From assembly GCA_963762255.1 (NCBI GenBank), contig CAVXKA010000001.1, positions 192,001 to 256,000 of the forward strand: a stretch of 64,000 nucleotides of DNA, in the 5' to 3' direction. The number at the start of each line of letters is the position of its first letter. Positions within the stretch are counted from its first letter, which is position 1. A model generated the notes under the pieces. That model was not told the origin of the DNA, ran no database searches, and saw nothing but the letters and a program-made list of their open reading frames with translations. Origin of the DNA: Candidatus Eiseniibacteriota bacterium (GTDB lineage: Bacteria > Eisenbacteria > RBG-16-71-46 > JABDJR01). Below, one piece after another: positions 1 through 47,170 of this stretch. The translations under genes and the position numbers were made by a program.

Positions 1-544
1 AGAGGCTCGACTCGCCGGCAGGCGTGCGATAGAGCGAGCTGTAGACAAAGGTCGCCGCGCCCGTCGAGGGGTTTACCCAGACGCTGACGCCGGGATCGCC
101 GCGGACCTGATCCCCGCCGCCGACCACCGGCAACTGTCCGCCGTAGGCGAAGGTCGCGCCGCCGTCGTGCGAGTACGCGAAGCCGGAGACGCTGACGCCG
201 CTCGGGTTGGAGAAGCCGTTCGCGTCGTTGAACCCGACGACGATCGTGTCCCCCTTCACGGCGATCGTGGTCTCGCTCTGGAAGCGAGGAGCGCCGGGCG
301 TGAGGTTGAGGTCGCCGCCGAAGATCGCGGGAGCGCCCCAGGGTGCGGGCGCATGGGCCATCGCCGTCGCGCGAAGTGCGGCAAGCCGTTCGGGGTGCGC
401 GTCGAGGTCGCGAAACAACTCTCCCATCGCGGAGAGGCGCGGTCCTTGTTCGGGTCGCTTGGCTGGGTCGCTCGCCATCGCTTGAGTACACGCGAGCAGA
501 CAGGCTGCGAGAGACGCGGCGAGAAGAGCTGGGCGGCGAGTCAT
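1..544 (-). CDS. Secreted BNR/Asp-box (sialidase-like beta-propeller) protein, 5' part; runs off the window edge
   Basis: Not in the ORF track. Manual translation from ATG 544 (upstream GAAGGAG) gives a signal peptide MTRRPALLAASLAACLLACTQAMA, then QSETTIAVKGDTIVVGFND and the Asp-box-like AYSHDGGATF. A -10-like TATACT lies upstream at ~609-614. Confidence 0.7.
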   Translation of the reverse strand, partial: MTRRPALLAASLAACLLACTQAMASDPAKRPEQGPRLSAMGELFRDLDAHPERLAALRATAMAHAPAPWGAPAIFGGDLNLTPGAPRFQSETTIAVKGDTIVVGFNDANGFSNPSGVSVSGFAYSHDGGATFAYGGQLPVVGGGDQVRGDPGVSVWVNPSTGAATFVYSSLYRTPAGESSL

Positions 545-633
545 GAGTCCGGGACTCCTTCGCAGGGGAATGAGGCGCATGGTCGCGGGGCGCGTGTTGT
601 TGGGCGGGAGTATAGCCCCGGGAGGGTCACCGT

Positions 634-749
634 GCGCGCCGCTGCGCGTGCGCCCGTCGCCCTCGCCGAAGGGGCCCCCGCTTCGCGGCCCTTCGGACTG
701 CGGCCGACGGGCGACCCGCTTCGCAGCGCGCAGGGGCACCACGCGGCGC
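634..749. repeat. Module B of the structured intergenic element plus a 17-bp direct repeat
   Basis: 651-720 equals the reverse complement of 45792-45861 at 69/70 (manual alignment). It has a CGCCCGTCG/CGACGGGCG stem and GAA/TTC mini-hairpins. GGGGCACCACGCGGCGC at 733-749 recurs at 3394-3410. Confidence 0.9.
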
Positions 750-768
750 TATGTGCGCCCACCAGGGT

Positions 769-3093
769 TCAGCGCTTGGACCACCTGATCCGATCCCAGG
801 TGGTCGGCGAGGTCCTCGCCGGGCATCCGGGGTCCGGGTAGCAGCCAAAGGTCATCGAGTCGGTCAGCGCGGGCGAGTTGCTCGCGACTTGGTAGTTTTC
901 GTTCGCGGGGTCGCAGAACAGCGGGTCCGCGAACAGCAGCACATCGGCCCATCCACTCGGGCACTGCCCGGACCCAATCCCGAGATCTCCTCCACCATTC
1001 CCCCACAGCAGGTTGGGGCCCATCGTCGCTGTCGTGCCCTCCCACCAGCAGCTGATCCCGCACTCTTCGTTGTATGCGATGAGGTTGCCGTAGACTGCAA
1101 GGTCCACTCCGGTTAGGTAGAGGAGAAGTCCTCCGCCGCCGTCGTGCGTGAGGTGCTGACCATCGTTCCAGACCAAGGTGTTGTACCGGATGACCCCCTT
1201 CATCAAGAGCGCGGCGATGGCACCTCCAGACCCGGTATCGCCAAAGAACCCTGTGCCGACGGTTCGATTCCGCACAAAGAGGTTGCCCTCAATCGAGTAC
1301 TGGCCCGCTCCGGAACCTCCAGCTGAGTAGATCCCCCCTCCGTGGTCCCCGGCTACGTTGTCCCAGAACTCATTACCCTCAAGAGCCGCCTGCCCCTGCA
1401 CCATCCACACCCAGGCACCTCCACCGTCGGCCCAGCACTGATTCCCGCGGAACACGTTGCCCCTAATCTCGTAGTTGCCGTTGAAACAAGCGAGTCCGCC
1501 TCCGTTATGACCAGACTCATTGTTCTCGATGATGTTCCCTTCGATCAGTGCTCCGGAGGGTGGATCGACGTAGCGGGCTCCTGCGCAAATGCCACCGCCA
1601 TCCCCACGGGACCCGCAGCTATTGCCCACGATCTTGTTCCCCCGGATCGTCGGCGAGCTTTCTTCGCAGCAGATGCCTCCCCCGTCCTGAGCCTTTCCCC
1701 AGATGGTGGACCCGCGCCCCCCCGTGATCGTGAATCCCTCCAAGACTGCTGCCCGGGTCTCCCCCCGGCGGATCACCACCACCGAGCTGTCCCGCAGGCT
1801 CCCATCCAGGATCGTCGCCTTCGGTCCTTCGGCGCTGCGCAGGACCAGATCCTTCCCCCGGTAATCCAGGTTTTCGTAGTACCTCCCCGGATGCACCAGC
1901 ACCGTGTCCCCCGTGCGCGAACTGTCAATCCCCGCCTGCACCGTCGGGGCGTCCCCGCTGCCATCTACCCGAATCGTCCATGTCTTCGGTGTCCGGCGCA
2001 CGTACCATTTCGTCGCCTTCGAGACCGCCCCTTGGTTGCCCTTCTCGTCCATCGCCCGCACGCAGAACCACAGCGTCGTGTCCCCTGGCAGATCCGTCAG
2101 GGTCAACTCCTCATGCTGTCCGGCCGCCTTCGGGATCAACGTCACCATCACCGGAGTGGCCGCGCTCCAGGTCGCCTCCGTGATCGCCAGCGTTGCGTAG
2201 CGGACGGCATAGCTCGCCGCCCTTCCTTCGTCTCCGTTGTCCCCCGACGCCGTCCAGGTCAGGGTCAACGTATACGGCTCGGTCCCGCCTGCCACCAAGT
2301 CCCGGATCGCCGACGGGGGGACCGTGTCGGCCGGCAGGGTCGCCACTACGTCATTGGACACCGGACTCTCGTGGCCCCCGTCATCTCGCGCCCGCAGCCC
2401 AAAGTGCAGCGTCGCCTCCCCCGTCAGACCCGCCACCCGTATCGTCTCCATCGTCCCGGCTGGGTGCGGTGTCTGTACGACTGCGAACACGATGGACCCT
2501 TCCCATGTCTCCTCCGTCACCGCGTCCGGTCCATACCGGACCTCGTACGCGGTGGCCGTCCCCTCGTAGCCGTCATCTCCCGGCGCGGTGAACTGCAGGG
2601 TGACCGCCTCCATCTCCACGGATGTGACCCGAAGGTCGGTGACCTGCGCCGGAGGAGTCGGGTCGGCGGTTTGCGCCTGCACCATGTTGGAGAGATCCGA
2701 TTCGTTCGCGGCGTCGTCCAGGGTGCGCAGTGCCAGATTGTAGATGCGGTCGCGGGTGAGACCGCTCACGGTGACGGTCTCGGGGACGCCGGCCTGCCGG
2801 GGGATTGGCAGCTCCTCGACCACCGTCGCGCTGTCCCATCCGGCAGGAAGTGCGCTCAGCGAGTAGCGAAGATCGTAGGAGGCGGCTTGCCCCTTGTCGC
2901 CGTCATCGCCGGGGCCGGTCCATGTGACCGTGGCACTGGTCTCGGTCGTGCGGAGGAGCGCGAGGTCGGTCACCGCAGCAGGGGGGGTCACATCAGGGCC
3001 GGGGGACTTGTCGTCACCGCAGCCAGCGACGAATGTGGCGGCGAGGAACCCCGTCAGCAGAACGACAGACATTGCTTGAACGAACCGTCGCAC
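769..3093 (-). CDS. Lipoprotein with three FN3-like repeats and a right-handed parallel beta-helix domain
   Basis: Lipobox FVAGC. Three repeats of the type D-x-x-PP-x-x-(V/I)-x-DL...(W/F)T(A/G)(P/S)GD(D/N)G...Y-x-(L/V)RY. Beta-helix signatures (TVQAGIDSSRTGDTVLVHPGRYYE, GFTITGG, repeated GGGI/N). Likely start is GTG 3093 (alternative ATG 3072), with an extended -10-like TGCTATGGT at ~3124-3132. Confidence 0.85.
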   Translation of the reverse strand: MRRFVQAMSVVLLTGFLAATFVAGCGDDKSPGPDVTPPAAVTDLALLRTTETSATVTWTGPGDDGDKGQAASYDLRYSLSALPAGWDSATVVEELPIPRQAGVPETVTVSGLTRDRIYNLALRTLDDAANESDLSNMVQAQTADPTPPAQVTDLRVTSVEMEAVTLQFTAPGDDGYEGTATAYEVRYGPDAVTEETWEGSIVFAVVQTPHPAGTMETIRVAGLTGEATLHFGLRARDDGGHESPVSNDVVATLPADTVPPSAIRDLVAGGTEPYTLTLTWTASGDNGDEGRAASYAVRYATLAITEATWSAATPVMVTLIPKAAGQHEELTLTDLPGDTTLWFCVRAMDEKGNQGAVSKATKWYVRRTPKTWTIRVDGSGDAPTVQAGIDSSRTGDTVLVHPGRYYENLDYRGKDLVLRSAEGPKATILDGSLRDSSVVVIRRGETRAAVLEGFTITGGRGSTIWGKAQDGGGICCEESSPTIRGNKIVGNSCGSRGDGGGICAGARYVDPPSGALIEGNIIENNESGHNGGGLACFNGNYEIRGNVFRGNQCWADGGGAWVWMVQGQAALEGNEFWDNVAGDHGGGIYSAGGSGAGQYSIEGNLFVRNRTVGTGFFGDTGSGGAIAALLMKGVIRYNTLVWNDGQHLTHDGGGGLLLYLTGVDLAVYGNLIAYNEECGISCWWEGTTATMGPNLLWGNGGGDLGIGSGQCPSGWADVLLFADPLFCDPANENYQVASNSPALTDSMTFGCYPDPGCPARTSPTTWDRIRWSKR

Positions 3094-3164
3094 AGCGACC
3101 CCCGCGTCACTCAGCCCACGAACACCATAGCACCGAAGATGCATGGACGGGAGCGCACGAAGCA

Positions 3165-3410
3165 GCGAGTCCAGCCGGCTGGACTCGCGCACCGTGCTCA
3201 CCCGGGTGAGCATTGGGCGCGCCGGCAGCGGGTCGCGGGTCGGCAAGCGGCGCGTTCGCCGTGCGCGCGCAGCGGACGGGCGCTCTAGCGGGACCCGTTC
3301 GCGAGCACGCACGGCGACGCGAAGCGAAGCCGCGCCGCGACATGCGAAGCGGCGCGCAGGGAAACCCCGAGGCGAGACGCGAGGCGGCGCGCCGGGGCAC
3401 CACGCGGCGC
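3165..3410. repeat. Palindromes and module A of the structured intergenic element
   Basis: Perfect palindromes at 3165-3188 (GCGAGTCCAGCCGGCTGGACTCGC) and 3195-3212 (TGCTCACCCGGGTGAGCA). 3255-3333 equals the reverse complement of 45582-45660 at 73/79. Direct repeat at 3394-3410. Confidence 0.9.
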
Positions 3411-3449
3411 GAACTGCGCCGCGCCGCCTCGGTGTGGTAGCCTGATCCT

Positions 3450-3851
3450 ATGAGCGACGAACGCAGCCCCGCAGAGATCCTCGATGCCCAGCGCGCCAAG
3501 GCGGGCAAGGTCGGGCTTCCCGTCACCCGCCGCCATATCTTCCTCTGCTGCGACCAGACCAAGCCGCAGTGCAGCGAACGCGAGCGCGCCAACGAAGCGT
3601 GGGACTACCTCAAGCGGCGCCTCCTCGAACTTGGGCTCTCCGAGCACGGCGGCGTGAACCGCACCAAGGCCAACTGCCTGCGCATCTGCCAGGGCGGCCC
3701 AATCGCGGTGGTCTACCCCGAAGGCGCCTGGTACGCGGGCTGCGATCCGCCGGTATTGGAACGCATCATCCAGGAGCACCTGATCGGCGGCCGCATCGTG
3801 CGCGAATACCTCATCCTCGAGCATCCTCTCGTCGTGGAGCCCGCCGAGTGA
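3450..3851 (+). CDS. Thioredoxin-like [2Fe-2S] ferredoxin
   Basis: HIFLCC...C...[25 protein letters not shown]...[10 protein letters not shown] pattern of Trx-like 2Fe-2S ferredoxins. Confidence 0.9.
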
Positions 3852-5875
3852 CCGTCGCCGACGCCGCCCGTCTCAAACCCGGCGTCACCGTCGACGATCT
3901 CCCCGAGCCGGAAGACGCGGCCGTCGGCGCTGCAGCGCTCGTTCGCGGCACCGCTCTCATCTTCTGGGATCCGGAACAGCCGGGCCGCAAGCTCGACGCC
4001 ATCGACACCGACCAGATCACCCCGGCCAAGGACTGCGTCTCGGAGAGCCTCGACGAACTCGACCGGCATTGGAAAGAAGGCGCATTCCGTCATCTCATGC
4101 CCGACTTCCGCGCCCGCGTGCATCGCGGCGAGACGTTTCTCGTGGCCGGCGACCGGTTCGCCATCGGGTCCTCGCGCGAGATGAGCCCGGCGGGATTGAA
4201 GGCCATCGCGGAAGAGGCCGGCCTCGACATGGTCATCGTATGCGGCGGCAACATGGGCGACATCTTCCGGCGCAACGCATTCAACCTGGGCCTTCACGTG
4301 GTGCAGTGTTCGGATGCCGTCGAGGACGCTCGCGATGGCGACCGCATGAGCTTCGACCCCGACACGCGCGCGATCGTCAACGAGACGCAGGGCAAGACCT
4401 ACGCGCCGCTTCCGCTCACGGAGAAGGAAGACGAGATCCGTCGCTCGGGCGGCATCTTCTCGGTGGGTCGCCGCGAGCTTCGCGAGTCCGTGACCCGCGC
4501 GCCCTCGATCGTCTGGCCGGACCCCGCGACCGCGAGCCGCCTCACCACCACCGAGCAGATCGTCTGGGCGCATCGCGTGAACAAGCAGGCGGAGGCGAGG
4601 CCGGGCGCGACTTTGCGCGTCTACGCCGACCTCCTGCCCGCCTCCGACGGGACCGCTCCCTTCGCCATCCACACCTTCAACCGCATCACCGGCGGCAGCG
4701 CGATCTATCCGCGTCAAGCGGCCATCGCCAGCGATCACTTCGTCTTCACCGGCGAGGCGGCCGACGAGAAGCAAACCGAGATCGGTCGCGCGTTCGCCGC
4801 TCGGCACGGCCTTGCCAAGCCGTTCTTCGCGGACCCCGGCGACGGCATCTTCCACTTCTATTTTCCCGAGCAAGGGCTCGTGATCCCGGGCGCGTTCATC
4901 CCCGGCGCGGACTCGCACAGCCGCGCGTACGGCGCGTACGGAGCGATGGGCTTCGGCGTGGGCTCGACCACGCTCGGCTTCGGTTGGTCGACCGGCTACG
5001 TCTACTTCACGCCGGCCAAGGCGCGACGCGTCGTCTTCACCGGGGCCTTGCAGCCGTGGGTGAGCGGCAAGGACATCGTGTTGCGGCTCCTGGCCGGCTG
5101 GGGCGCCGCGCAGGCGCAAGGGATGTCGGTGGAGTTGGTCGACCGCGACCGGCAGCTCCCCATTGCCTTCCGCAACACGATCGCCAACATGATGGCGGAG
5201 GCGGAGGCGCAGAACGGGATCTTCGCTCCCGACGAGATCACGCTTCGCTGGTATCGCGACAAGGGACTCGCCGAGTTGCCCTACCCCGCGATCGCGCCCG
5301 GCGAAGACGCGCACTACGAGATCGACGAGACGCTCGACTTGGCCGACGTCGTCCCCATGATCGCCAAGCCGTTCAGCCCCGCCAACGCGTTCCCGGCGGA
5401 AGAGGTGGCGCGCGAGCGCATCACGTTCGATCGCGCCTATATCGGCTCCTGCACGAACGGGAGCTACGACGATCTGCTCACCGCCGCGCTCGTCATACGC
5501 GCCGCGCGCGAGGCGGGCGCCGGGCGGACCGCGCGCGATCTCCTCATCTTTCCCGGCTCTGGAGGCGTGCGCCGCCGCATCGAGTCCCCCGAACCGCGCC
5601 TGGGCGGCGACCCGATCGCCGATGTCTTGCGCGCCGCGGGAGCGCAAATCCGCGACTCCTGGTGCGGCCCCTGCTTCGGGCAAGGACCGGATGCCCTGGC
5701 CCCCGGACAGCGCGCCATCACGACCTTCAACCGCAACTGGCACAACAGGATGGGCCTTGGAGGCGAGGGCTATCTGGCCAGCCCGGCGGTCGTCGCTGCC
5801 TCGGCGCTCCTGGGGTACATGGCCCCGCCATCGGAGCTGGGCCTGGCCTGGGATCCGGCGCGCTACGAGCCCTGA
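3848..5875 (+). CDS. Aconitase-family dehydratase; fused LeuD-like (N-terminal) and LeuC-like (C-terminal) domains
   Basis: [13 protein letters not shown] and [10 protein letters not shown] (small subunit/swivel); ADSHS, GSCTNG, CGPCFG, NRNW and LASP (large subunit, 4Fe-4S ligands). GTG start overlaps the ferredoxin stop (GTGA). Confidence 0.88.
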
Positions 5876-5994
5876 CGGCCCCACAAGAACCCGCACACTT
5901 CGAAGACAGCGCAACACGCGCTCATGTTGGTCCGTTTATAATCGTGCGCCTCACCCCCCGGTCCTCAAAGTCCACCATCCCACTGAGGACTGAT

Positions 5995-8683
5995 ATGTCC
6001 ATGAGCCACTTCTGCCGCCGATACGCGAGACGAGACGGATCCGGCCCCGCGCCGGTATCGCGACGCATCGCCGGCGTTCTCCCGCTCGCGTTCTTCGCGG
6101 TGACTCTCGCGACGACACGCCCCGCAGCCGCGGCGTTCCACACGTTCGAGCCGACCGGCGACGATGCGCAGTACCCGCCGACCGCGAACGGCCGCCTCAT
6201 CGGCACGCCGACGGTTCGCACCTACTCGCTTTCGCGCGGCGAGAGCATCACGGTCGACGGCAAGCTGGACGACCCTGTCTGGCTCAAGGCGGAAGGGGCG
6301 ACGGGATTCACGGTGTGGGAGCCTGATCGCGGCAAGACGCCCTCCGAGGAGACCGTCTTCAAGGTCGCTCACGACCAGGATGCGATCTACTTCGCGGTCG
6401 CCTGTCCGGAGAAGGACGCGGCGAAGATCAGCAAGAAGCTCTCCCGGCGCGACAAGTTCAGCAACTCGGATCTGGTGAGCGTCTACATCGACCCGTATCA
6501 CGACCGCAGCACCGGCTACAACTTCCGGGTGAACCCGCTGGGCGTGCAGACCGACGCCTATATGTATAACGACGGCGAGCGCGACGACGACTGGGATGCG
6601 GTGTGGGAGGGCGAGGTGACCGAGGACGCGGGCGGCTGGTACGCGGAGATCCGCATCCCGTTCTCGGCCATCCGGTACCGCCCCGGCCTCGATACCTGGG
6701 GGCTGCAGGTCTACCGCTATATGCATGGCCGCGGCGAGGACACGGCGTGGGTGACGTGGAACCGCGAGCAGAGCGGGTTCGTGAGCCGGTTCGGCACCCT
6801 CATGGGCCTGGAGGACGTCCCCCCTCCGCGCCAACTCGAGATCCTCCCCTACGCGGTGGGGCGCGCTTCCGACCCGGTCGCTCCGCGCAGCGAGGACGGC
6901 ATCGACGGACTCGGAAACTTCGGAGCGGACCTCAAGTACGGCGTCACCTCCGACCTCACCCTGAACGGTACCTTGCAGCCCGACTTCGGCCAAGTGGAGG
7001 CCGACCCGGCCGAGCTCAACCTCTCCCCCTTCGAGACCTTCTTCGAGGAGAAGCGCCCGTTCTTTATCGAAGGGAGCCGGTTCTTCCAGCAACCGGTCTT
7101 CACGATGTTCTATTCGCGGCGGATCGGGACCGGCGACGCCAACTCCCGCATCCGTTACGCGACCAAACTCACCGGCAAGACGAAGTCCGACGTTTCGGTG
7201 GCCGCGCTCGCCGCATCCACCGACGTGACCGGAGAGGGCCAGGCCCACAACTTCCTCAAGAGCGGAGATCAGACTGCGCGCTACTTCGTCACGCGCCTCG
7301 GCAAGGAGTTCGCCCAGGGGCGATATCGTTTCAACGTCATGCAAACCGCGGCGCTCAGGAGCGCCGACCGCACGACCTACGGCGACTTCGCCTCGCGCGA
7401 TGCCTATACCACCGGCCTCGATTTCGATCTCAAGTTCAAGGATCGCAAGTACCGCATGGTGGGAAACTTCGCCGGCTCGGTGGTGGATCCCCGGGCTCTC
7501 CCCGACGATCCGCGGAGCGGCTTGTCCAGATACGGCACGGGCGGCCATCTCGAGGCCCAGCGCACGGCAGGAAAGGTGCTCGTATCGGCCTGGGGGCACT
7601 GGGAGACCGACCGGCTCGATCTCAACGATCTCGGGTACCTGCAGGCCCCCGACGAGATCAACCTCGGCGGCTGGATGCAGTACCGGTACAACCCCGAAGG
7701 CAAGAACAAGCATGTCAATCAGGCCCAGCTGACCCTGAACCTGTGGAGGATCATGACTGTACGGTGCCCGCACCGGCTACGACCTCCATACCCGGGAGCC
7801 GATCTGGTCCTACGGGCGGGGGTTCTTCCAGAGTCACGGCGCCACCCTCGAGCCCTGGATCCAATTTCGAGACTACCGGGAGCTATGGGCGGGGCTCGAA
7901 TACGGCTCCGAGAACAATCAGCGTTACGAGACTCGGAGCACGGTGATGCTCCTGCCCGACGCCCACGGAAACGTCGTGGAAGCGCCCATTCCCGGAGGCG
8001 GGCCGCTCATGAAGGATCCCTTCTCGTATGGCGGCTGGGTGGGAGGCAGCAGCGATACCCGCCGGGACTTCGTGGCGCAGGCCACCGGGATCTACTTCGA
8101 GGATACGGCCAAGAACACGGTCAGCGAGCTGGAGACCTCGGTGCGCTGGAACCAGTCGAGCGCGGTGAACCACGAGCTGATCCTCAACTACGAGTACCGG
8201 CGCGACGACACGCAGCACCTGGGGAACTACGAGAACACCAACGGCGGGATCGGGGGCGTGAGCTACGTCTTCGGCGTGTTCCGCCAGCGCACCGTGGATC
8301 TGACCCTGCGCACGAGCCTCCTGTTCGACCGGGATCGGTCGCTCGAGATCTACGCTCAGCCGTTCATCACGGTGGGGAACTACACCCAGGCCAAGGAGCT
8401 GGCCGCGCCGTTCACCTACGACTTCATCCCTTACACCCGCGACGGGTTCAAGGCCTCCGACCACGACTTCAGCTACACGTCGGTCAACGTGAACGCGGTG
8501 TACCGGTGGGAGTACCGGCCGGGGAGCACGTTCTACCTGGTGTGGGCGCACAACCGATCCGACTACTCGGAGCGCGCGGCGGGGCCGCAGCACTTCAACA
8601 ACCGCCTGCGGACGGGGGCGTTCTTCGATACCGAACCGGGAAACACGATCTTGGTCAAGATCAGCTATTGGATTCCGGTCTAG
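5995..8683 (+). CDS. CBM9-like/DUF5916 outer-membrane-type protein with a +1 frameshift near 7750-7757
   Basis: ITVDGKLDDPVW, YNFRVNPLG, PDFGQVEADP and FFEEKRPFFIEG motifs in the 4069 frame from ATG 5995. The C-terminal half (YRWEYRPGSTFYLVW...KISYW) is in the 7943 frame. One extra base joins them. Confidence 0.8.
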
Positions 8684-29769: not shown

Positions 29770-29922
29770 TGACGCGGCGTAGCGTGCCGCCCGGGTGAGC
29801 ACCGAGAATCGATCGCGACGATACATATACGTAGATTAAACAGTGACGATGTCTACAAAAACATTCTGAGATGATCACCCGGGTGATCATCGGGCGCCAG
29901 TCCTGCGATCGCGATCACAGGA
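29770..29922. repeat. Palindrome-rich intergenic region related to the 3195/45718 palindrome
   Basis: Perfect 22-bp GATGATCACCCGGGTGATCATC at 29870-29891, a degenerate copy at 29784-29802, a hairpin at 29901-29922 and an AT-rich core at ~29820-29868. Confidence 0.7.
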
Positions 29923-44152: not shown

Positions 44153-45565
44153 ATGTCCACCACGCAAAGCGCGCAACTCGTTGTGCTCGGCGCCGGCCCC
44201 GGAGGCTACGCCGCCGCATTCCTCGCTGCCGACCTCGGCATGGAGGTCGTGCTGGTCGACCTCGAGCCCAACCCGGGCGGGGTCTGCCTCTATCGCGGCT
44301 GCATCCCCTCGAAGGCGCTCCTCCACGTGGCCAAGCTCATCACCGAGTCGCGCGAGGCCGCGCACTGGGGCGTCCACTTCGAGCCTCCGCGCGTGGACCT
44401 GCCCCGCCTGCGCGCCTGGAAGGACGAGGTCGTCGGCAAGCTGACCGGCGGATTGGGTGAACTCGCCAAGCGCCGGAAGATCCAATACGTGCGGGGGCGC
44501 GGTCATTTCGAAGGGCCGAACATGCTGGCGGTGGGCGGCGCCGACGGCTCTCGCATCGCGTTCCAGCACGCCATCCTGGCCACGGGATCCAGCGCCGCCA
44601 CGCTACCGGGGATCGAAGCCGGCGGGCGCATCATGAACTCGAGCGCGGCGCTCAAGCTCGAAGAGATCCCCGAGACGCTTCTGATCGTGGGCGGTGGGTA
44701 CATCGGGCTCGAACTCGGCTCCGTCTATGCGGCGCTGGGGAGCCGCGTCACGGTGGTCGAACTCACCGGCACTCTGCTTCCCGGCGCGGACGCCGATCTG
44801 GTGCGCCCGCTGGCGCGGCGACTGGAGGGCGCGTTCGCGGCGATCCACCTCAACACCAAGGTGACGTCGATGAAAGAAACCGGAAGCGGCGTGAGGGTGA
44901 CCCTCGACGGCGAAGCGGTGAAGGATCGCGACCAGACCTTCGATCGCGTGCTGGTGTCGGTGGGACGCAAGCCCAACTCCGCCAACCTGGGTCTCGATCG
45001 CACGCGCGTGGAGGTGAGCCCGCAGGGATTCGTGCAGGTGGACCGGCAGCTTCGCACGGCGGAGCCTTCCATCTTCGCCATCGGGGACGTGGTGGGCCAG
45101 CCGATGCTCGCCCACAAGGCCTCGCACGAGGGACGCACTGCCGTGCAGGCCATCGCAGGCCGCAACGTGGAGTTCTCGCCGGCGGCGATTCCAGCCGTGG
45201 TGTTCACCGATCCCGAGATCGCCTGGTGTGGGCTGACGGAAACCGAGGCCAAGGCGTCGGGGCGCAAGGTGGAGATCGCGCGGTTCCCGTGGGCGGCCTC
45301 GGGGCGCGCCACTACGCTCGACCGCTCCGACGGCGTCTCGAAGCTGTTGGTGGATCCCGAGACCGAACGCATCCTCGGCGTGGGTCTCTGCGGCCCGGGC
45401 GCGGGCGAGTTGATCGCCGAGGGCGTGCTCGCGATCGAGATGGGGGCGACGGTCGAGGATCTCGATCTCACGATTCATCCGCATCCGACGCTGTCGGAGA
45501 CCCTGATGGAGGCCGCCGCGTCGTTCTTCGGCACGAGCACGCACGTCTACAAGCCGAAGCGGTAG
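44153..45565 (+). CDS. lpdA: Dihydrolipoamide dehydrogenase E3
   Basis: GAGPGG, GGVCLYRGCIPSK, GGGYIGLE and HPHPTLSE. Confidence 0.97.
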   Translation: MSTTQSAQLVVLGAGPGGYAAAFLAADLGMEVVLVDLEPNPGGVCLYRGCIPSKALLHVAKLITESREAAHWGVHFEPPRVDLPRLRAWKDEVVGKLTGGLGELAKRRKIQYVRGRGHFEGPNMLAVGGADGSRIAFQHAILATGSSAATLPGIEAGGRIMNSSAALKLEEIPETLLIVGGGYIGLELGSVYAALGSRVTVVELTGTLLPGADADLVRPLARRLEGAFAAIHLNTKVTSMKETGSGVRVTLDGEAVKDRDQTFDRVLVSVGRKPNSANLGLDRTRVEVSPQGFVQVDRQLRTAEPSIFAIGDVVGQPMLAHKASHEGRTAVQAIAGRNVEFSPAAIPAVVFTDPEIAWCGLTETEAKASGRKVEIARFPWAASGRATTLDRSDGVSKLLVDPETERILGVGLCGPGAGELIAEGVLAIEMGATVEDLDLTIHPHPTLSETLMEAAASFFGTSTHVYKPKR

Positions 45566-45571
45566 CGGTCG

Positions 45572-45882
45572 GCGTGGTGCTGCGGCTTCACTCGGCGTCG
45601 CCGTGCGTGCTCGCGAACCGGTCCCGCTAAAGCGCCCGTCCGATGCGCGCGCACGGCGAACCCCTCGCTCACCGCAGCGCACACGGCGGCAGCCCATTCG
45701 CGGCGAGCACGGGCAGAATGCTCACCCGGGTGAGCATCTTGCGCGTATGAGTCGGCCGGGCGGACTCGCGGTCCGCGCAGACGCGGCGCGTAGCGGGTCG
45801 CCCGTCGACCGCAGTCCGAAGGGCCGCGAAGCGGGGGCCCCTTCGGCGAGGGCGACGGGCGAGACGCGAAGCGCCGCGCGCC
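45572..45882. repeat. Compact copy of the structured element: module A, palindrome, hairpin, module B
   Basis: A at 45582-45660, ATGCTCACCCGGGTGAGCAT at 45718-45737, degenerate GAGTC..GACTC hairpin at 45749-45767, B at 45792-45861. Same order as the reverse complement of 634-3333. Confidence 0.9.
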
Positions 45883-45883
45883 T

Positions 45884-47170
45884 CTACGTCCTCTTGATCA
45901 CCACCAGCGTCCGGTCGTCCGACCGCGCCCGCGCTCCCGTGTGCGCGTTGACCGCGTCGAGGATGCGCGCCACCATCTCGGCAGCCGGTGCCTCGCGATG
46001 GCCGGCCACCACGGAAACCATGCGGGGCACACCGAACTCGCGGTCGTCGGCGTCGAGCGCCTCGGTGATCCCGTCCGAGTAGAGAAGCAGAACCTCCCCC
46101 GCGCGAATCTCGGCGGAACCCTCCGGAATGGTCACCTTCGGCAGGATCCCGAGCACGAGCCCTCCGATGTCCAGCACGGCATGACTCCCGTTGGCCCCGA
46201 AGAGAACCGGGTGCTCGTGTCCCGCGTTGGCGTAGCAGAGCCGGTGCCGGCCGGTGTCCAGGATGCCGAAGAAGCAGGTCGCGAATTTCTCGCTGTCGGT
46301 GCTGTGGTAGAGGATCGTATTGGAACGATGCAGGCACTCCGAGGGAGACGCGTTCATGAGCGTCTGCCCGCGCACGGTGGCCTGAAGGCTCGCCATGAGG
46401 AGCGCGGCCGGCATCCCCTTGCCGGATACGTCGCCGAGGCACACCGCAAGCCGCCCGTCCTCCATGGGGATGAAATCGAAGTAGTCCCCGCCGACTCCCA
46501 TCGCGGGCAGGCTCGTGCCGGCGATGTCGTACCCCGGGCAATTGGGAGGATGCTTGGGGAGCAGGTTGGCCTGGATGTCCAGCGCCAGCCGCAACTCCTC
46601 CTGCATGCGGATCATGGTCTCCTGCTCTTCGATCCGCTTCTGGTTGAGCGCATAGTTCTCGAGCGAGATGGCGGCCTGCGACGCCAGGGCGTTGGCCAGC
46701 TTCAAATCCCCGGCGGTGAACATGTCGTCGACGTCGCGCCTTCCCGCGCAGAGCACGCCGTAGACCGTGCTCTCGGTCCTCAGCAGCGCGCAGAGAAACG
46801 AATCGGGAAGATCGTCGCGGACCACCCCCAACTCGGCCGCGAGACCGTAGAACATCCGCGATTTCCCGGAAGCGACAAGCTCTCCCACCACCGACTCCTG
46901 CAGGAATCCCACAAGCTCCTCGGGCGCTCCCTCGCGGACCGGCGCGAACTTACCGATCCCCTCACCGGCTGGAATGAGCCAACCCATATCGGCGGCAAAT
47001 ATGTCCATCGCCTCCCGCAGCACCATCTCCATGTTCCGCTGGACATCGAGGGAGGTGGCCAAGCGCCGGGTCAGGCGGTAAATCAGGTCCAGTTCCTCGT
47101 AACATTCGAGGAGATTCCTGGTGAGGCTCTCGATGGTCTTGGCGGTCCCGTCCGCCTTCTCCTTGTCCAT
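45884..47170 (-). CDS. GAF plus PP2C (RsbU/SpoIIE-like) phosphatase
   Basis: VGGDYFD, GDVSGKGMPAAL, ANAGH, YSDGITEA and DDRT; N-terminal GAF ending FTAGDLKL. Confidence 0.93.
   Translation of the reverse strand: MDKEKADGTAKTIESLTRNLLECYEELDLIYRLTRRLATSLDVQRNMEMVLREAMDIFAADMGWLIPAGEGIGKFAPVREGAPEELVGFLQESVVGELVASGKSRMFYGLAAELGVVRDDLPDSFLCALLRTESTVYGVLCAGRRDVDDMFTAGDLKLANALASQAAISLENYALNQKRIEEQETMIRMQEELRLALDIQANLLPKHPPNCPGYDIAGTSLPAMGVGGDYFDFIPMEDGRLAVCLGDVSGKGMPAALLMASLQATVRGQTLMNASPSECLHRSNTILYHSTDSEKFATCFFGILDTGRHRLCYANAGHEHPVLFGANGSHAVLDIGGLVLGILPKVTIPEGSAEIRAGEVLLLYSDGITEALDADDREFGVPRMVSVVAGHREAPAAEMVARILDAVNAHTGARARSDDRTLVVIKRT

Follow-up and report, generated by a model that had tools for sequence, protein, structure and literature searches.

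Two repeat-rich loci in a Candidatus Eiseniibacteriota genome probably represent independent mosaics of four palindromic repeat families

Integron cassettes, including those of clusters of attC sites lacking integron-integrases (CALINs), carry accessory cargo and have at the 3' end of the gene an imperfect palindrome of 60-140 nt, the attC site, with the core motifs RYYYAAC ... GTTRRRY. A different group of hairpin-forming sequences comprises the repetitive extragenic palindromes (REPs) and bacterial interspersed mosaic elements (BIMEs), described as short GC-rich palindromes outside genes that are clustered with other motifs into mosaics (PMC3333891, PMC2817692). REPs are given in PMC2817692 as usually exceeding 100 copies per genome, and Table 1 of that paper lists a REP head, GT[AG]G; elsewhere REPs are described as targets of insertion sequences (PMC1525189), and pairs of inverted REPs with a spacer, the REP doublets forming hairpins (REPINs), are presented as non-autonomous and mobile (PMC3337134). 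REP13E12/HNH/DUF222 sequences are also counted among repetitive elements (PMC10589994). Here we compare with these systems two loci in a 64,000-nt stretch of a Candidatus Eiseniibacteriota genome (the window, C1:192001-256000 of genome G000, which is 4.14 Mb in three contigs, 66-67% G+C and 93.6% complete). At positions 634-3410 a lipoprotein gene lies among four repeated modules, namely the repeats A and B, the palindrome P and the hairpin H, and near 45.6 kb the same modules lie close together. An earlier note on this DNA took the two loci as a filled and an empty state of one gene-capturing element. We put the chance at about three in four that they are independent mosaics of four GC-rich palindromic families, REP/BIME-like and confined to one genus, with B as a hairpin of gene 3' ends.

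The likeness of the two loci, as the earlier note had described it, is confirmed by alignment and BLAST. On the minus strand of 634-3410 the modules follow in the order A, P, H, about 2.4 kb, and B, and at 45.6 kb in the order A, P, H, about 10-25 nt, and B. The A copies (3241-3333 and 45582-45674, inverted) are 88% identical over 93 nt, and the B copies (651-730 and 45782-45861, inverted) are 95% identical over 80 nt, or 90/98 by BLAST with E 1e-37. P, TGCTCACCCGGGTGAGCA, is exact at both 3195-3212 and 45719-45736, and H forms a perfect hairpin at 3166-3187 and an imperfect one at about 45748-45768; the entire A-P-H block of the two loci aligns by BLAST at 142/189 with 21 gaps (E 2e-33). The lipoprotein gene (769-3072, minus strand) is the only gene in the interval of about 2.4 kb between H and B. 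The features at the two loci are the following.

634-730, minus strand: B, long GC-rich hairpin repeat (nhmmer match C1:192639-192725, E 1.1e-18)
710-759, plus strand: direct repeat copy 1, consisting of a B arm and the genome-unique 17-mer 733-749
769-3072, minus strand: lipoprotein gene, 767 aa, with three FN3-like repeats and a right-handed beta-helix; member of a multi-copy family
3166-3187, strandless: H, 22-nt perfect palindrome (H-P match C1:195166-195214, E 4.3e-14)
3195-3212, strandless: P, 18-bp perfect palindrome TGCTCACCCGGGTGAGCA
3241-3333, minus strand: A, hairpin repeat of about 85-93 nt (nhmmer match C1:195247-195330, E 1.5e-20)
3371-3420, plus strand: direct repeat copy 2, consisting of a B-arm-like motif and the 17-mer 3394-3410
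45582-45674, plus strand: A, 20 nt past the stop of a dihydrolipoyl-dehydrogenase-type gene (44153-45565)
45717-45768, minus strand: H-P composite, with P exact at 45719-45736 and H imperfect (C1:237717-237768, E 1.1e-07)
45776-45879, plus strand: B, 10 nt from the stop of a convergent SpoIIE/GAF phosphatase gene (45884-47170, minus strand)

Across the whole genome the four modules behave as separate families. Copies were counted by iterated nhmmer, in which the seed for H-P was the perfect copy at 3160-3222 (the P-H stretch of the 'empty' locus, used as a seed, retrieved itself alone), and double hits on palindromes were merged before H-P, P and H were counted. There are 7 copies of A and 22 of B (one of them partial), the latter dispersed on three contigs and both strands, together with 17 H-P composites, 46 further P sites and two sites with H alone. 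P is found at 66 sites with at most two mismatches, and the spacer between H and P varies from a few to about 35 nt across the 17 composites. The modules are mostly found apart. P, H or H-P lies within 60 nt of at least 7 of the 22 B copies, and H-P or P within 170 nt of 6/7 A copies; direct abutment of A and B is seen at one of the seven A copies (and one of the 22 B copies), the 'empty' site at 45.6 kb alone. Neither order nor orientation is kept, and maps centred on A show five arrangements among the seven loci, as listed here.

The two loci of the window: A, followed by H-P in reverse and by B oriented as A
C1:703173: H-P, co-oriented with A, on its upstream side; B downstream, inverted
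C1:1686887 and C2:800885: H-P downstream of A in the same orientation; B absent
C2:317335: B upstream of A, inverted
C3:719853: near A, P only

Nor do the copies at the two loci have their closest relatives in each other. The A of the filled locus is closest to C1:1686899-1686963 (copy C1:1686887; 98.5% over 65 nt) and its B to C1:1267599-1267693 (copy C1:1267603; 93.7%), and the B of the 'empty' locus is closest to C1:583254-583362 (copy C1:583269; 97.2%), whereas the two loci rank lower as mutual relatives, at 91.8% for B versus B. Copies whose nearest relatives lie at other loci therefore fit independently scattered repeats and not two states of one element.

The repeats occupy particular kinds of sites. 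Intergenic positions account for 20/22 B copies, 6/7 A copies and 50 of the 66 P sites as called by the codon model, which over-extends some open reading frames (ORFs) across repeats; the lipoprotein gene, for example, was called to 3246, so that H-P at 3166-3214 was counted as 'inside'. Sixteen of the 20 intergenic B copies lie at most 46 nt from the 3' end of a gene. B is in convergent spacers in 11/20 cases against a baseline of 12% (binomial P 5e-6) and in divergent spacers in 0/20; for P the figures are 11/35 convergent (P 2e-3) and 2/35 divergent, and with all families pooled divergent spacers hold 4/78 intergenic copies against 15-23% expected. The orientation of B relative to the preceding gene is mixed, and in many places across the genome it stands directly behind the stop codons of unrelated core genes, which speaks against the capture of genes by one element as the earlier note had it. 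The B at 634-730, 44 nt 3' of the stop codon of the lipoprotein gene, is thus at its usual kind of site, while the A at 3241-3333 occupies the divergent spacer upstream of that gene, where an A-P-H group is at an unusual site for these families.

Some further placements of the repeats are recorded here. The B copies C1:106118-106205 and C1:701982-702070 are inside long predicted ORFs, by crude gene calls, and the sister genome is about 126 nt shorter at the C1:701982 site; at these two places (C1:106118, C1:701982) B may sit within, or may have lengthened, a coding region. A third P-type palindrome in the window, TGATCACCCGGGTGATCA at 29872-29889, lies by the gene calls between two co-directional genes, 106 nt beyond the first and 191 nt short of the second. 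P copies overlap in tandem with a 12-nt offset at C1:779992/780004 and C2:788387/788399. At C2:1040467-1047323 there are tandem paralogous genes (of about 1119 and 896 aa), each ending in a pair of P copies 76 nt apart, and the stop codon of these paralogs is overlapped by the first P of the pair.

B, which measures 88-100 nt, folds as a single long hairpin (-76 kcal/mol, z -4.8, with 0/200 shuffles as good), the perfect H-P stretch folds with z -3.7, and the fold of A is weaker (z -1.2 on one strand and -2.2 on the other). Among the 22 aligned B copies both sides have changed at 4 of 23 consensus pairs (in 7, 7, 5 and 1 copies), and among the seven A copies at 3 of 28, where the counts tally sequences, not events, and some of the changes mark subfamilies. 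The outer stem of B alternates between two complementary forms across the alignment. The window had no Rfam match at the gathering threshold, and 45540-45910 had none at E up to 1. A terminator scan of 400-3700 returned three sites, none of them at B, and no T-run follows B; as a GC-rich hairpin without a T-run, B does not have the form of a Rho-independent terminator. The earlier note had also given the lipoprotein gene its own -10, for which a simple sigma-70 scan of 400-3700 yielded no promoter-like site.

The families are lineage-specific. Relatives were compared in up to 41 genomes for B and for the gene families described below, and in five genomes for the A-P-H block; the sister genome, G001, belongs to the same genus and is 75% complete in 360 contigs. 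By DNA search among the 41 genomes, B has 22 matches in its own genome and 5 in G001 (2 of full length), and elsewhere there are short core matches alone, in four other genomes. The A-P-H block has a match in G001 only, among the five genomes searched. A degenerate form of P, TGMTCACCCGGGTGAKCA, has 56 exact sites in its own genome, 3 in G001 and 0 in 39 other relatives (the reversed pattern, as a control, has 0 sites), and the copy number of P is a lineage-specific burst. At the 'empty' site the genome studied here has a spacer of 318 nt, and the G001 orthologue of this spacer measures 28 nt; the latter is a small hairpin like the outer stem of B, from which A, H-P and the B core are all absent. 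Given the 28-nt spacer of G001, the 'empty' site reflects either about 290 nt of added repeats or a loss in G001, and, as the sister spacer is without A, H-P and the B core, it is not the ancestral or resting state of a cassette. One B is common to the two genomes at an orthologous site, one A in G001 follows a stop codon at a place where the genome studied here has a 4-nt spacer, and A and B are solitary at the three G001 loci examined. The presence of the repeats thus differs between sister genomes, and that part of the earlier note which called them non-autonomous repeats is supported.

A plausible scenario is that P, H, A and B have spread as non-autonomous mobile DNA and may work at gene ends as hairpins of RNA or DNA. 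The location of B, and to a lesser degree of P, downstream of stops and mainly between convergent genes would suggest that transcript 3' ends tolerate, or profit from, a hairpin in either orientation. At the 634-3410 locus, the lipoprotein gene would then have B as its 3' element and A-P-H in the spacer upstream; at 45.6 kb, A would have settled after the stop of one gene and B after the stop of the convergent gene, with H-P between them. The repeats may accumulate in variable spacers and perhaps promote recombination there, and may thereby serve as recombination sites. With neither order nor orientation kept, and with most copies beside core genes, we see no dedicated capture element.

The closest described counterparts are the REPs and BIMEs of Enterobacteria, Pseudomonas and Stenotrophomonas. 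As in these, P, H, A and B form mosaics of variable order and orientation, and P, A and B are mainly intergenic. GTAG stands at the 5' side of B in 15/22 copies, where it may correspond to the GT[AG]G head tabulated for REPs, and is found in neither P nor H. Unlike REPs, P is a perfect 18-bp palindrome with no GTAG head, and A and B are three to four times the length of a REP. B resembles the REPINs of Pseudomonas fluorescens in being one hairpin of about 90-100 nt with inverted, near-symmetrical arms, in having tens of copies, and in a stem kept through compensatory changes. It differs from them in that a link to the REP-associated tyrosine transposase (RAYT) defines REPINs and no RAYT was found here, and no family of solo 'half-B' REPs was seen.

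The likeness to integron cassettes is confined to a palindrome at the gene 3' end and to cargo such as a surface protein and a toxin-antitoxin pair. The window's A and B contain no GTT or AAC and so cannot hold attC core sites, as the earlier note had rightly said; there is no integrase nearby, and in place of co-oriented cassette arrays B is dispersed after core genes in both orientations. A miniature inverted-repeat transposable element was considered and rejected, there being no target-site duplication at 45.6 kb relative to the sister genome and no parent insertion sequence with the module ends.

A further comparison is offered by the REP13E12/DUF222-HNH elements of mycobacteria. Repeats of at least 400 nt with A, B, H or P at their ends were not found, save for one tandem gene duplicate and a unit of about 1.5 kb, present in 5-6 copies and coding for a 432-436-aa HNH endonuclease (PF01844, with scores of 40.7 and 45.5 bits, above the cut-off).

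HNH unit copies: C2:935405-936955, C3:948909-950380, C3:153207-154681, C2:556440-557852, C2:316410-317778 and C1:1301610-1302602

The unit begins with an AT-rich, promoter-like stretch and carries P in frame in its 5' coding part, with P-like copies beyond; its stop codon lies within the left arm of B, and the B copies at these units form a subfamily marked by the variant C-G at one of the stem pairs. P and B are physically linked in this way to a multi-copy HNH endonuclease gene. Not all copies of the unit are intact: that at C3:949 is split into 255 + 155 aa, and that at C2:556 has internal stops. One A, at C2:317335-317418, is inside the variable linker of the HNH gene with the frame left open and is absent from the other four of the five aligned copies, and this is the most direct sign of A inserting at new places. 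The HNH gene family has matches in 14/41 genomes and is multi-copy in several related genera; the single copy inspected in another genus (G004) had no B-like hairpin downstream, judged by eye. The mycobacterial elements are alike in having a multi-copy HNH gene of about 1.5 kb. They differ in that DUF222 was not detected at E 0.01 in the HNH protein here, and in that the gene here carries P in its 5' coding part and ends in an arm of B.

The lipoprotein gene belongs to a variable locus. Its 767-aa product has a lipobox (...FVAGC), with fn3 at 62.6 bits and Beta_helix at 38.9 bits, and the family has matches in 38/41 genomes, with 15 matches in the genome studied here, three of which are full-length paralogs. 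The locus there runs from an 839-aa gene through a 148-aa gene and a 979-aa gene (minus strand) to B, the lipoprotein gene, H-P and A, and then on the right side to a small gene at 3450 and an aconitase-family gene. G001 has a 72-nt spacer between the 148-aa gene and the small gene and lacks the two minus-strand genes. The 979-aa gene is kept in three genomes of another genus, where it is followed by 2.3-2.5 kb unlike the lipoprotein gene, a stretch that holds other ORFs in both genomes inspected. The gene is therefore non-syntenic in the five relatives examined, and on this point the expectation of the earlier note holds. The closest G001 homologue (65% identity) adjoins the orthologue of C1:1269162. 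This homologue (L002:1745-1763, G001:C163) carries a 16-18-nt P-like palindrome in its coding region (...PAHPGEQ...), where the genome studied here has unrelated codons. As to the right flank, the small gene and the aconitase-family gene are adjacent in this genome and four others; in G003 (C14:736000-749000) the orthologue of the 3450-3851 small gene is about 9 kb from the aconitase-family gene.

Several smaller repeats reported at the filled locus by the earlier note are likewise present in the sequence. The exact 17-mer at 733-749 and 3394-3410 has no further occurrence in the 4.14-Mb genome and is the core of a 50-nt direct repeat (710-759 and 3371-3420) of 80% identity. The 16/18 inverted repeat pairs 703-720 with 3227-3244, and the imperfect inverted ends lie at 634-654 and 3371-3392. 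Both consist of short motifs from the arms of B, matching B by BLAST at 20/22 and 18/21; the inverted ends are described as short arm motifs because a B-profile nhmmer search upstream of the lipoprotein gene gave weak matches (E 0.019 and 0.47). One copy of the direct repeat lies within the left inverted end and the other beyond the right one, so the arrangement is not that of a target-site duplication.

Among public runs, all of them available as contigs, the best contained 0.23 of the sampled words, and no RNA run with the sequence was among those listed. Contigs of four public runs were aligned to 1-6000 of the window at 85% likeness. The bin 601-800, which holds B, had 5-20x the depth of its neighbours, as expected of a repeat. 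Several run contigs join the B end (616-735) to P/H (3169-3195), with 5-23 extra letters or with sides of 23-50 letters, and comparable junctions of B with H-P exist at other loci of the genome itself, e.g. C1:583163-583357 and C2:884326-884452. With like junctions elsewhere in the genome, and with likeness below 95 or short sides, these contigs were not counted as excision products or empty sites.

A number of observations weigh against independent mosaics. The two loci of the window agree in how A, H-P and B are ordered and oriented relative to one another, and the gene with its H-P and A lies between the copies of the 50-nt direct repeat. Each of the three full-length lipoprotein paralogs is flanked by P, H-P or B on its 3' side and by H-P on its 5' side, where two of them have A as well. 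B is found within 3 kb of 4/7 A copies where 0.18 is expected, a value reached in 0/20000 permutations, and still at 2/5 A copies without the two loci of the window; being above chance, this proximity means that the families are not independent in space. Two A...B intervals, moreover, hold accessory-type genes, the lipoprotein gene in one and a HigB-like toxin with an HTH antitoxin in the other. The copy numbers, from 7 to about 66, are below the more than 100 given as usual for REPs in PMC2817692. The transposase associated with REPs was also not found: RAYT (Y1 HUH transposase, PF01797) had 0 matches in the genome, which is 93.6% complete and where 3 candidates were scored, in a search that found the family in 6/14 reference genomes used as a control. 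REPs and BIMEs differ from the repeats here in this respect, a point of interest in its own right. The gene calls, finally, come from a self-trained codon model with approximate starts and approximate distances to gene ends.

The second of these A...B intervals lies in the region C1:701982-704051, where two type II toxin-antitoxin pairs are found among the repeats. The order in C1:701982-703361 is B, P, the HTH antitoxin gene, the HigB-like toxin gene, A and H-P; the HigB-like toxin and HTH_3 antitoxin are on the minus strand between P and A, and a MazE-type antitoxin and PIN toxin follow H-P on the plus strand. This toxin-antitoxin stretch has no synteny in the other genus, and in G001 the contig breaks off at the site orthologous to the HigB locus.

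The best of the alternatives, which we nevertheless regard as unlikely, treats the repeats as substrates of homologous recombination, such that the gene, H-P and A arrived or were rearranged through dispersed B-type arms and left the 50-nt repeat behind. It is compatible with independent mosaics and adds one step to them. That the 80% repeat with its unique exact 17-mer brackets exactly the gene, H-P and A is what such an event would leave, and REPs as described insertion-sequence targets (PMC1525189) offer a parallel; but it would be a single event with neither donor site nor reciprocal product, and the repeat is just 80% identical outside the 17-mer. The differences among relatives, with a 72-nt spacer in G001 and unrelated ORFs in the other genus, are also in keeping with it, although G001 is without the left neighbour too, and a deletion there explains part of the difference. 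Similarly, the 65% homologue that in G001 sits beside the C1:1269162 orthologue instead could be taken for the relocated gene, but may be a paralogue and not a relocated orthologue.

It is a long shot that the modules mark the borders of swappable accessory genes, namely the lipoprotein paralogs and the HigB toxin-antitoxin pair, and that their hairpins are recognised by an enzyme other than a RAYT or an integrase, for which the HNH endonuclease, with P in the coding region of its gene and B at the end of it, would be a candidate. The oddities that remain, namely the unique 17-mer repeat, the non-syntenic gene, the A-B proximity and the HNH link, have a correspondingly slim chance of reflecting a real hairpin-guided process of gene relocation. 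Were this true, the A...cargo...B arrangement and the 50-nt repeat would be the footprints of an undescribed hairpin-guided relocation of genes.

The proposal of the earlier note itself, that A-P-H...B is a single non-autonomous element mobilised in trans, with a slot that is vacant at 45.6 kb and occupied by the lipoprotein gene at 634-3410, we consider very unlikely. It draws on the order and relative orientation common to the two loci, on the excess of A-B proximity, on the second interval with its HigB-type toxin-antitoxin pair and on the absence of the lipoprotein gene from this locus in the five relatives examined. A single element is difficult to reconcile, however, with an 'empty' composite that is formed by 1/22 B and 1/7 A copies, with differing copy numbers of modules that mostly lie apart, and with other A-B neighbourhoods in which B is inverted or upstream of A and H-P is inverted or on the opposite side. 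For the A and B at either locus closer relatives exist elsewhere, the sister genome has a 28-nt spacer at the 'empty' site and solitary A and B at 3/3 loci, and B follows the stops of many unrelated core genes. Nor was a recombinase, for which the earlier note had proposed to look, found next to any copy: besides the RAYT search, which gave no match, none of the genome's 13 tyrosine recombinase matches (PF00589) comes closer than 20 kb to an A or a B and none is at the two loci, and the direct repeat does not look like a target-site duplication.

The most improbable reading is that these are cis-regulatory sites of the host, with P and H as operators of a global dimeric regulator, A-P-H as the control region of the lipoprotein paralogs and B as a terminator, for while P and H are perfect palindromes like dimer-binding sites and H-P lies 54-93 nt upstream of the starts of 3/3 full-length lipoprotein paralogs, P is enriched in promoterless convergent spacers (11/35) and rare in divergent ones (2/35), its 56/3/0 distribution looks like a recent burst and not a conserved regulon, P-like copies are in frame within the HNH family and the G001 lipoprotein homologue, H-P at the C1 paralog is inverted relative to the C2 and C3 paralogs, 2/7 A copies adjoin lipoprotein paralogs, and B has no T-run and was missed by the terminator scan.

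Independent mosaics of the four families probably remain the best account of the two loci, and they place the locus with the REP/BIME-type mosaic repeats, a known feature of genomes, rather than with a new system of gene capture. Annotation is thereby gained for about 95 repeat copies in this genome. The families are of interest in themselves in being confined to one genus, with P present in 56 exact copies here and 3 in the sister genome, and in the HNH endonuclease gene that is physically tied to P and B.

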